A stretch of DNA of 64,000 nt, from the NCBI RefSeq assembly GCF_054482595.1, contig NZ_CM137008.1; one strand, given 5' to 3'. A model generated the notes under the pieces. That model was given only the letters and a program-made list of their open reading frames with translations. It had not been told where the DNA came from and ran no database searches. Made by a program: the position numbers and the translations under genes. The first letter of the stretch is position 1, and each line of letters opens with the position of its first letter. Of this stretch, positions 111-19,944 are shown in pieces.

Positions 111-382
111 TATTTTTCCTCGCCATACAACAGCGCGCCGACATCCGGCTCAACGTCAAACATGTTTTGTAAGGCGTCGAGAGTGTCGCGTGCTTCGGCT
201 TCATTAATTACGCTCATGGCAAAGCCAACGTGTACCAGTACCCACTGGCCCACGCGCGGCTGACCGTTTTCATCGCAGCTGCCGACTAACGTTAAATCGA
301 CATCGCGCTGAATGCCGCAGACGTCGACTTTCGCCTGGTTGCCGTCAATGGTGCGGATCTGGCCGGGAACGCCTATGCACAT
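110..382 (-). CDS. hypC: HypC hydrogenase maturation chaperone (90 aa)
   Basis: ORF-track 110..409; protein from the internal start is [25 protein letters not shown]..., the HypC N-terminus with its Cys2. Start moved to ATG at 380..382, which overlaps the end of hypB. Confidence 0.9.
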
Positions 383-1245
383 CGCTGTGTCTCCAGCCAG
401 TTCAGCCACTGGTCCATCCCTTCGCCGCTGGTGGCGGAAATAAGGATGATTTCAATTTCTGGATTGACTTCGCGGGCGCAGGCGATGCACTTCTCAACGT
501 CAAAGTTGAGATACGGCAACAGGTCAACTTTGTTGAGCAGCATCAGCGAGGCGGCGGCAAACATATGCGGATATTTCAGCGGTTTGTCTTCACCTTCGGT
601 AACGGAAAGCACCGCCACTTTGTGTTTTTCACCGAGATCGAAGCTCGCCGGGCATACGAGGTTGCCAACGTTTTCGATAAACAGAATACCGTTATCGTCC
701 AGTGGCAGGCGCGGTGCGGCGTCAGCAATCATCTGTGCGTCAAGATGGCAGCCTTTACCGGTATTCACCTGAATCGCTGGTGTGCCGGTAGCGCGAATGC
801 GTGCGGCATCGTTCACGGTTTGCTGGTCACCTTCAATAACCGCGCACGGAACGCTGTCTTTCAGGCGCATTAAGGTTTCCGTCAGCAGGGTGGTTTTACC
901 GGAACCAGGGCTGGAAACCAGGTTGAGCACCAGTTGCTTGCGGGCAGCAAAGCGCGCGCGGTTGCGTTCAGCCAGACGGTTGTTTTTGTCCAGCACGTCA
1001 ATTTCGACTTCCAGCATCCGGCGCTGGCTCATGCCCGGTGCGTGAGTGCCCGCTTCGCCATGACCGTAATGCAGGTCGCCTTCTTCAGTCTGGCTGGGGG
1101 TAAATTCAGGCGCTTTAATGCCGGTGATTTTCATCTTCGGGCGTGCCGCCGGGGCAAATGGCGCGCTACGAAACGCGGAATGAGGGTTATGTTCATCACC
1201 CTCGATATACAGGTTGCCTTCACCGCAACCGCATGTTGTACACAT
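373..1245 (-). CDS. hypB: HypB Ni-binding GTPase for hydrogenase maturation (290 aa)
   Basis: ORF-track protein begins [25 protein letters not shown] and contains a GSGKTT P-loop; length matches HypB. Confidence 0.95.
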
Positions 1246-1248
1246 CGC

Positions 1249-1599
1249 TCACTCCTGGTCTATTTCTATCCGCCGAATCTGTAAACCGTCGTCTGCCACA
1301 ATCTGTAGCATGTCACCATGACACTGTGGACAGCGGCGGACGCGCTGGGTCAGTAGCGTCACATACTGTTGGCATGTTTCACACCAGCATTCGGCCTCTT
1401 GTTCTTCGAGGTGCAGTTTACAACCTTCCGCCACGCTGCCGCGGCAAACCAGATCAAAACAAAAGGCAAGAGAGCTGGTTTCGACACAAGAAAATGCGCC
1501 AATTTTGAGCCAGACCCCAGTTACGCGTTTTGCGCCGTGTTTTGCGGCCTGCTGTTCGATCAATTCCAGTGCCCGTTGGCAGAGGGTTATTTCGTGCAT
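1249..1599 (-). CDS. hypA: HypA Ni insertion protein for hydrogenase 3 (116 aa)
   Basis: ORF-track 1249..1611; the recognised HypA N-terminus MHEITLCQRALELIE starts at the internal ATG 1597..1599. C-terminal CxxC...CxxC zinc motif present. Confidence 0.9.
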   Translation of the reverse strand: MHEITLCQRALELIEQQAAKHGAKRVTGVWLKIGAFSCVETSSLAFCFDLVCRGSVAEGCKLHLEEQEAECWCETCQQYVTLLTQRVRRCPQCHGDMLQIVADDGLQIRRIEIDQE

Positions 1600-1629: not shown

Positions 1630-1645
1630 AGCAATAATTGTGCCA
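1630..1645 (-). promoter_or_regulatory. sigma54 (-24/-12) promoter for the hyp operon
   Basis: Minus strand reads TGGCAC-aatta-TTGCT, a canonical GG-N10-GC sigma54 element about 30 nt upstream of the hypA start; hyc/hyp are known FhlA/sigma54 dependent. Confidence 0.7.
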
Positions 1646-1670: not shown

Positions 1671-1713
1671 ATGTCGATGATGTCGAAATGACACGTCGAC
1701 ACGGCGACGAAAT
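1671..1713. promoter_or_regulatory. Putative FhlA upstream activating sequence between divergent hyp and hyc promoters
   Basis: Repeated TGTCG / CGACA half-sites (atgtcgatgatgtcgaaatgacacgtcgacacggcgacgaaat) centred between the two sigma54 promoters. Confidence 0.6.
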
Positions 1714-1758
1714 TCATCTTTAGCTTAAAAATCGTTTTAATAACAATGAATTAAAAGT

Positions 1759-1774
1759 TGGCACAGAAAATGCT
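1759..1774 (+). promoter_or_regulatory. sigma54 (-24/-12) promoter for the hyc operon
   Basis: TGGCAC-agaaa-ATGCT with GG-N10-GC spacing, about 37 nt upstream of the hycA ATG at 1811. Confidence 0.7.
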
Positions 1775-1810: not shown

Positions 1811-2272
1811 ATGACTATTTGGGAAATAAGCGAGAAAGCCGATTACATCGCACAGCGGCATCGTCGCCTACAGGACCAGTGGCACATCTACTGCAATTCG
1901 CTGGTTCAGGGGATCACGTTATCGAAAGCGCGCCTGCATCACGCCATGAGCTGCGCGCCGGACAAAGAACTCTGTTTCGTCCTTTTTGAACATTTTCGTA
2001 TTTACGTCACCCTGGCGGATGGCTTTAACAGCCACACCATCGAGTATTACGTCGAAACAAAAGAGGGCGAAGACAAACAGCGGATTGCGCAGGCGCAACT
2101 GAGCATTGACGGCATGATTGATGGCAAGGTCAACATCCGCGATCGCGAACAGGTTCTGGAACACTATCTCGAAAAAATCGCTGGCGTTTACGACAGCTTA
2201 TACACCGCTATTGAAAACAATGTGCCGGTGAATTTAAGCCAACTGGTAAAGGGACAAAGCCCGGCAGCATGA
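1811..2272 (+). CDS. hycA: HycA, negative regulator of the formate regulon (153 aa)
   Basis: ORF-track protein MTIWEISEKADYIAQRHRRLQDQWHIY... recognised as HycA; first gene of the hyc operon. Confidence 0.93.
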   Translation: MTIWEISEKADYIAQRHRRLQDQWHIYCNSLVQGITLSKARLHHAMSCAPDKELCFVLFEHFRIYVTLADGFNSHTIEYYVETKEGEDKQRIAQAQLSIDGMIDGKVNIRDREQVLEHYLEKIAGVYDSLYTAIENNVPVNLSQLVKGQSPAA

Positions 2273-2321
2273 GCTGAGGCTTTGCCCGTTTTGCAGGCGT
2301 TACGCCTGTTTGGGGATGGGC

Positions 2322-2367
2322 GTGTCGATGAGTGTCGAAAATGACATTTCATCGGCATGTTTTCGTC
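2322..2367. promoter_or_regulatory. Second putative FhlA-type site in the hycA-hycB intergenic region
   Basis: gtgtcgatgagtgtcgaaaatgacatttcatcggcatgttttcgtcaaaaatgaca: reiterated TGTCGAAAATGACA-like motifs resembling the upstream site at 1671..1713. Confidence 0.5.
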
Positions 2368-2396
2368 AAAAATGACAATCACCTGAGGAATGCCTG

Positions 2397-3008
2397 GTGA
2401 ATCGTTTTGTAATTGCTGACTCCACGCTCTGTATCGGCTGCCACACCTGTGAGGCCGCCTGTTCAGAGACGCATCGCCAGCACGGCCTGCAATCAATGCC
2501 GCGCCTGAGAGTGATGCTAAATGAAAAAGAATCTGCGCCGCAGCTCTGTCACCACTGTGAAGATGCACCCTGCGCGGTGGTCTGCCCGGTTAACGCCATC
2601 ACCCGCGTTGATGGGGCCGTGCAGTTGAATGAAAGCCTGTGCGTAAGCTGCAAACTGTGCGGCATCGCCTGCCCGTTTGGCGCAATCGAATTTTCCGGCA
2701 GCCGTCCGCTGGATATTCCGGCAAACGCCAATACCCCGAAAGCGCCACCGGCACCGCCTGCTCCGGCGCGTGTCAGCACATTGCTTGACTGGGTGCCAGG
2801 TATTCGCGCGATCGCCGTCAAATGTGACCTTTGTAGCTTTGATGAACAAGGTCCGGCCTGCGTGCGGATGTGCCCGACTAAAGCCCTGCATCTGGTGGAT
2901 AACACCGATATCGCCCGCGTCAGCAAACGTAAGCGTGAGCTGACCTTTAACACGGACTTTGGCGATCTCACCTTGTTTCAGCAGGCTCAAAGTGGAGAGG
3001 CTAAATGA
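2397..3008 (+). CDS. hycB: HycB, FHL complex Fe-S (4Fe-4S ferredoxin-type) subunit (203 aa)
   Basis: MNRFVIADSTLCIGCHTCEAAC with multiple CxxCxxCxxxCP motifs; GTG start at 2397 preceded by GAGGA. Confidence 0.93.
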   Translation: MNRFVIADSTLCIGCHTCEAACSETHRQHGLQSMPRLRVMLNEKESAPQLCHHCEDAPCAVVCPVNAITRVDGAVQLNESLCVSCKLCGIACPFGAIEFSGSRPLDIPANANTPKAPPAPPAPARVSTLLDWVPGIRAIAVKCDLCSFDEQGPACVRMCPTKALHLVDNTDIARVSKRKRELTFNTDFGDLTLFQQAQSGEAK

Positions 3009-13992: not shown

Positions 13993-14005
13993 ACATTGTC
14001 ATCAC

Positions 14006-14033
14006 ATGTCATCGTCACTAGTGTCGATGACAT
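14006..14033. promoter_or_regulatory. Inverted repeat ATGTCATCG-N10-CGATGACAT upstream of hydN, possible FhlA-type site
   Basis: Inverted repeat seen directly; resembles the TGTCG/CGACA motifs at the hyc-hyp sites; hydN-hypF is reported to be formate regulon. Confidence 0.4.
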
Positions 14034-19817: not shown

Positions 19818-19833
19818 TGCAGATTGCGTGCCA
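19818..19833 (-). promoter_or_regulatory. sigma54 promoter of norVW
   Basis: Minus strand reads TGGCAC-gcaat-CTGCA (GG-N10-GC), about 45 nt upstream of the norV start. Confidence 0.75.
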
Positions 19834-19888: not shown

Positions 19889-19944
19889 GTCAAAATGACT
19901 ATCAATCAAATGGTCAATATGACAATATCTATAGTCAAATTGAC
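19889..19944. promoter_or_regulatory. Three NorR enhancer-binding sites (GTCA-N3-TGAC)
   Basis: gtcaaaatgac (19889..19899), gtcaatatgac (19913..19923), gtcaaattgac (19934..19944) in the norR-norV intergenic region, matching the known GT-N7-AC NorR site. Confidence 0.85.

Follow-up and report, generated by a model that had tools for sequence, protein, structure and literature searches.

Why should the spacer between two genes of one operon carry a cluster of repeats that closely resembles the operon's own upstream activating sequence (UAS)? The question is raised by the hycA-hycB spacer in the window, the whole 64-kb stretch of DNA analysed here, which is Escherichia coli chromosome and includes the hyp-hyc DNA. 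The initial annotation had taken the cluster for a second FhlA site downstream of hycA and had proposed that, as an intra-operon enhancer, it could raise expression of hycB-I relative to hycA. Over 821 bases around the cluster, the sequence is 100% identical to that of strain XH990, and this region is found in 5425 of 5426 complete E. coli genomes; one of the 5426 region-bearing E. coli records is a plasmid, and one genome holds two copies of the region. The hycA-hycB spacer has the same sequence as in K-12 MG1655. Table 1 collects the coordinates of the genes, promoters and motifs discussed below.

Table 1. Genes, promoters and regulatory motifs in the 64-kb window.
Feature	Coordinates	Strand	Remarks
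hypB	373..1245	-	
hypA	1249..1599	-	
sigma54 -24/-12 promoter of hypABCDE(-fhlA), TGGCACAATTATTGCT	1630..1645	-	zero consensus mismatches; conserved in all genera
First FhlA UAS (IR1), TGTCGA-TGA-TGTCGAAATGACA-CG-TCGACA...GACGAAATTCA	1672..1716	.	
IHF-like site, TAACAATGAATTA	1741..1753	+	between IR1 and the hyc promoter; one mismatch to WATCAANNNNTTR
sigma54 promoter of hycABCDEFGHI, TGGCACAGAAAATGCT	1759..1774	+	ChIP-seq site for hycA
hycA	1811..2272	+	
hycA-hycB spacer	2273..2396		
Whole motif array in the hycA-hycB spacer	2323..2377	.	from sequence, repeat searches and conservation in 24 genera
A1, outer half-site TGTCGA	2323..2328	+	10 bp (one helical turn) before A2
A2, inverted repeat TGTC-GAAAAT-GACA = TGTCGAAAATGACA	2333..2346	.	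exact match
Mirror half-site TCGGCA (bottom strand TGCCGA)	2352..2357	.	
Block B, TTTCGTCAAAAATGACA, with inverted repeat GTC-N6-GAC	2361..2377	.	
hycB ribosome-binding site GAGGA; GTG start codon	2385..2389; 2397..2399	+	directly 3' of the array
hycB	2397..3008	+	GTG start
hycC	from 3005		
hydN-hypF FhlA-type array (the third), TGTCAT, TGTCAT, TGTCGATGACA	13997..14032		-87 to -115
hydN sigma54 promoter, CTGGCATGATTTGTGAA	14087..14103	+	third FhlA-dependent promoter
norV sigma54 promoter	19818..19833	-	
NorR enhancer triplet of norVW, GTCAAAATGAC, GTCAATATGAC, GTCAAATTGAC (GTCA-N3-TGAC)	19889..19944		

The array has the layout TGTCGA-N4-TGTCGAAAATGACA-N5-TCGGCA-N3-TTTCGTCAAAAATGACA. Its first part, region A (2323..2357), is a near-palindrome centred at 2339.5 and built of the four half-sites TGTCGA, TGTC, GACA and TCGGCA; the second part, block B, contains an inverted repeat centred at 2370.5 as well as the word CGTCAAAAATGACA (2364..2377), which matches the A2 14-mer at 12 of 14 positions. 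The interval originally assigned to the cluster, 2322..2367, was right in its start, but its end cuts the last repeat by 10 nt. The FhlA consensus CATTTCGTACGAAATG, with the half-site CGAAATG, is attributed to Leonhartsberger et al. 2000 as quoted in PMC4987338. A2 holds a half-site of this type with one extra A, TCGAAAATG and CAAAAATG match the half-site of the consensus with one extra A or one substitution, and a CGAAATG-like half-site is carried by the cores of both the UAS upstream of hyc and the spacer array.

The likeness to the UAS, placed by the initial annotation at 1671..1713, is genuine: one 9-mer, TGTCGATGA, is present at both 1672 and 2323. The composite motif TGTCGA-N3-4-TGTCGAAA is found at these two positions only in the 64 kb, and in none of 100 dinucleotide shuffles. 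An ungapped search with the 14-mer, allowing up to 3 mismatches, is not significant alone (10 matches, 6.5 expected), and it misses the upstream site, the core of which is one base shorter. The signal resides in the clustering of motifs. When FhlA-type words are counted in 60-bp windows across the 64 kb, the top three by density fall in the hycA-hycB spacer, in the UAS between hyp and hyc, and upstream of hydN; from the composite motif and from word clustering alike, the repeat cluster stands out as non-random.

The upstream element, IR1, follows the same plan as region A, with TGTCGA-TGA-TGTC-GAAAT-GACA-CG-TCGACA at 1672..1701; within it, the counterpart of A2 is TGTCGAAATGACA at 1681..1693, and that of the mirror half-site is TCGACA at 1696..1701. 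Block B resembles CGTCAAAACTGAC of the K-12 fdhF UAS, in which TTTCGTCACGTCAAAACTGAC comes close to block B and the elements lie at -83 to -117. To judge from these shared words and their arrangement, the UASs that precede hyc, hydN and fdhF are homologues of the array, and the earlier recognition of a second FhlA-type site downstream of hycA was correct.

IR1 lies between two divergent sigma54 promoters. That of hyp is identical to the K-12 sigma54 ChIP-seq site given for hypA in PMC4591121, and that of hyc differs by one base from the site given there for hycA. From promoter spacing, transcription would start near 1619 for hyp and near 1785 for hyc, which places the centre of IR1 at -98 from the hyc start and at only -68 from the hyp start. 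The IHF-like site reads AATCAAT.... in most other genera in the alignment, and no exact IHF consensus occurs in the region. Across 80 related loci (L001-L080), the IR1 core is always 57, 68-71 or 79-80 bp from the -24 element of hyc, and 35-37 or 45-48 bp from that of hyp; the values change in steps of roughly one helical turn, which suggests that the whole divergent promoter region is phase-constrained. A further sigma54-like element, TGGCACATCTACTGCA, with 1 mismatch, lies inside hycA at 1880..1895 (+ strand). It is conserved because it overlaps the codons for the invariant residues W24, Y27 and C28, and the main text of PMC4591121 gives no ChIP-seq peak inside hycA.

The array is under strong purifying selection at the DNA level. 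The comparison covered the 80 loci found with an alignment of HycA as the query, which belong to Escherichia, Salmonella, Citrobacter, Enterobacter, Klebsiella, Raoultella, Kluyvera, Kosakonia, Lelliottia and other genera, and hypA is divergent from hycA-hycB in all of them. Over 24 genera, the length of the spacer ranges between 67 and 146 nt, its 5' part cannot be aligned or is missing, and its only conserved parts are the array and the hycB ribosome-binding site; in Enterobacter and its relatives, the motif array and the ribosome-binding site make up the whole spacer of only 67-73 nt. Fourteen consecutive bases of the array are invariant in the 24 genera, compared with 7% of the four-fold sites of hycB in the same species. 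Five of the six bases of A1 are invariant, the TGTCGA of A2 is invariant or nearly so, and the block B sequence TCGTCAAAAATGAC is the same in every one of the 24 genera, while the mirror half-site TCGGCA is kept in Escherichia, Salmonella, Citrobacter and some others but not in Klebsiella or Kluyvera. Conservation also reaches two distant loci, L085 and L089, with HycA identities of 40% and 38%: just before hycB, both carry TGTCGAAATGTCA followed by TTTCGTCAAAAATGAC or TTCGTCATCTTTGACGAA, TCGTCAAAAATGAC of block B being still present in L085, and both keep the divergent hyp arrangement. Within E. coli, the array itself is identical in 5309 of 5426 records; the 83 bp that bear it are variant in 117 and the adjoining 83 bp in 891.

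The spacing of the motifs is constrained together with their sequence. A1 and A2 are 10 bp apart in nearly all 80 loci, and A2 and block B are separated by 30-31 bp, except in the Enterobacter clade, where the distance is 18-22 bp, that is, one helical turn less. Repeats set whole helical turns apart are what a row of proteins bound along a single DNA face is expected to leave. This fits PMC11291172, in which Leonhartsberger 2000 is cited for the binding of the FhlA helix-turn-helix domain to one side of the DNA.

HycA-family proteins (25-50% identity, Pfam HycA_repressor) also occur outside the hyc/hyp context. These distant HycA-like genes (L084, L086, L087, L088 and L090) are orphans outside hyc, with flagellar genes, a pair of FaeA/AraC-type regulators, an autotransporter or a two-component system as neighbours.

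Since an FhlA-type array sits immediately before hycB, it could be read as an intra-operon enhancer that feeds a sigma54 promoter in front of hycB and so raises hycB-I relative to hycA, as the initial annotation proposed. The DNA between the array and hycB leaves little space for such a promoter: from the end of the array to the hycB GTG there are just 20 nt, occupied only by the ribosome-binding site, whereas FhlA UASs elsewhere lie ~85-115 bp upstream of the transcription start. A search for the proposed sigma54 promoter on the + strand from 2150 to 2700 yielded a single GG-N10-GC site, which has 6 further mismatches, and none with fewer. The hycA-hycB spacer contains no sigma70-like promoter either, and the 67-73 nt spacers of other genera are too short to hold one. 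Of two independent genome-wide maps of sigma54 binding, the ChIP-seq study (PMC4591121, main text) reports binding only in the hycA/hypA spacer and none before hycB, and gSELEX gave binding at the hycA and hypA promoters only (PMC8743547). With no space, no promoter element and no mapped sigma54 binding, an internal hycB promoter is therefore not supported, and an enhancer acting on hycB-I in this manner is extremely improbable. We conclude that hycB has no promoter of its own, and that hycB-I are driven from the hyc promoter.

Given that the array is transcribed, its conservation might instead reflect a role in the mRNA, as a long hairpin that controls hycB translation or the processing or stability of the message. 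For the transcript of 2235..2400, an unusually stable fold is indeed predicted (-70.6 kcal/mol, z = -5.1), including a 19-pair hairpin over 2319..2363 and a small CACC...GGTG stem across the ribosome-binding site and start codon. The alignment, however, lends this fold no covariation support: 74.6% of the cells pair, compared with 72.7% in shuffles, and just 4 cells change on both sides. Moreover, block B is invariant although most of it has no pairing partner, the right arm of the hairpin is missing from the Enterobacter clade, and these motifs are also found ahead of hyc, hydN and fdhF, in DNA that is not transcribed. The strong predicted fold arises because the protein sites are palindromic, and a function of the conserved sequence at the RNA level is very unlikely. 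A structured RNA element was accordingly rejected as a candidate, with paired cells no more frequent than in shuffles and no match to an Rfam family.

Other features of the transcript lie on either side of the array. The hycB start is GTG in all 24 genera (alignment of 2380..2425), the first hycB codons, GTGAAYCGTTTTGTAATTGC, are almost invariant, synonymous positions included, and through the CACC...GGTG stem the start codon could pair with sequence 5' of the ribosome-binding site. Two stem-loops are predicted at 2251..2313, around and just past the hycA stop codon, one of them being CAGGCG-TTA-CGCCTG followed by TTTGGGG; neither was called by a terminator scan. Salmonella and Citrobacter have different sequences at this position, also with inverted repeats, and the segment is absent in the genera with short spacers. 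It may set the hycA:hycB ratio, either as a weak terminator or through mRNA stability.

FhlA is a formate-responsive sigma54 enhancer-binding protein, a tetramer in solution. We take the array to be IR2, a remote FhlA enhancer that has already been described and is a textbook feature of the E. coli formate regulon; as an FhlA enhancer it is already known, and little in this assignment is new. In 1994, Schlensog, Lutz and Bock reportedly obtained an FhlA footprint between hycA and hycB and assigned the site to the activation of hyp. On the evidence assembled here, the array is most likely an FhlA binding site and a remote enhancer of the divergent sigma54 hyp promoter. Its motif content suggests that FhlA would occupy it, and geometry, together with the assignment reported in the literature, points to the hyp promoter as its target. 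Relative to the hyp start, regions A and B lie at ~-720 and ~-751, on the upstream side and within looping range. IR1, by comparison, has its centre at -98 for hyc, with the conserved IHF-like site before the start, and at only -68 for hyp, while other FhlA UASs lie at ~-83 to -117; this geometry favours the array as the element that serves hyp.

In the mechanism that we propose, FhlA would occupy the near-palindrome A and block B on one face of the helix. Once formate is bound, it would hydrolyse ATP and, looping out the ~720 bp that contain hycA, contact the sigma54 holoenzyme waiting at the hyp promoter, which would thereby open. From the opened promoter, hypABCDE would be transcribed, and by read-through also fhlA itself. 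For the hyc operon with hycB-I, the driving element would be the separate UAS at 1672..1716, which acts on that operon's own promoter at 1759..1774.

The same array might, instead of or besides serving hyp, be a second enhancer for the hyc promoter that raises the whole operon, hycA included. It would then act from ~+555 to +586, possibly in cooperation with IR1-bound FhlA through a loop of ~650 bp that encloses hycA. NtrC-type activators are generally known to act at a distance and in either orientation, enhancers of this class can also act from downstream, and the array and IR1 share one architecture and are retained together in every locus examined. Against this, IR1 alone has both the canonical position (-98) and the IHF-like site for the hyc promoter, and the literature reportedly gives IR2 to hyp; this reading, too, predicts no change in the hycB/hycA ratio. 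Comparative data do not separate the two targets, as divergent hypA is present in every hycA-bearing hyc locus examined (the 80 loci together with L085 and L089), and among these no locus has hycA-hycB separated from hyp. The array and the hyp promoter are 657 to 742 bp apart, with distances spread continuously over this range and no sign of helical phasing. Taken together, we consider a role at the hyc promoter unlikely.

With the hyp promoter retained as the preferred target, an enhancer placed within the hyc unit, where the anti-activator gene hycA gives way to the structural genes, may still do more than feed hyp. FhlA at both arrays could bridge a loop of ~650 bp holding hycA and both promoters, with either array serving either promoter; or RNA polymerase reading through from the hyc promoter could displace FhlA from the array, or the array could slow the polymerase. 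Such interference between polymerase and array, were it to occur, would link hyc transcription with the expression of hyp-fhlA and with the hycA:hycB ratio. The sequence offers no specific support for loop sharing or polymerase coupling, and we regard both as speculative and quite improbable.

Read as the remote hyp enhancer, the array would provide a clean example of a natural long-range bacterial enhancer placed inside a neighbouring operon. Beyond the old footprints, the comparison adds an invariant 14-mer, spacing changes by whole helical turns and retention down to 38% HycA identity, details that could guide FhlA motif models or the design of formate-responsive promoters.

Among known systems, the closest likeness is with IR1 itself. 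Both elements consist of TGTCGA, one helical turn, TGTCGAAA(A)TGACA and then a mirror TCGRCA, and both are conserved in the same genera and belong to the same regulon; they differ in that the DNA around IR1 is not transcribed and its promoter follows ~98 bp downstream, beyond an IHF-like site, whereas the array is itself part of the hyc transcription unit, is separated from the hyp promoter by ~720-750 bp and has the extra invariant block B. The UASs of fdhF and hydN-hypF share with the array the GTC-N5-6-GAC inverted repeats and the TTTCGTCA words, and each is linked to a sigma54 promoter. Their elements, however, are at ~-83 to -117, not hundreds of bp away and not inside another operon.

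Two further comparisons extend beyond the FhlA regulon. The norVW enhancer triplet in the same window consists of GTCA-N3-TGAC sites for NorR, a paralogous GAF-domain sigma54 activator. The NorR consensus GT-N7-AC, as quoted in PMC4987338, is also matched by the FhlA core GTCGAAATGAC in IR1 (1682..1692), and the paralogues FhlA and NorR therefore recognise very similar half-sites. The NorR system nevertheless has another regulator and a nitric oxide signal, and its three evenly spaced 11-mers lie directly upstream of one promoter. In the NtrC family, the closed sigma54 complex is activated through DNA looping, independently of distance and orientation, and the same is proposed here for the array. 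The natural NtrC sites of glnA (glnAp2), however, are at ~-110 to -140, whereas the array would act from ~720 bp away, through a loop that encloses a gene.
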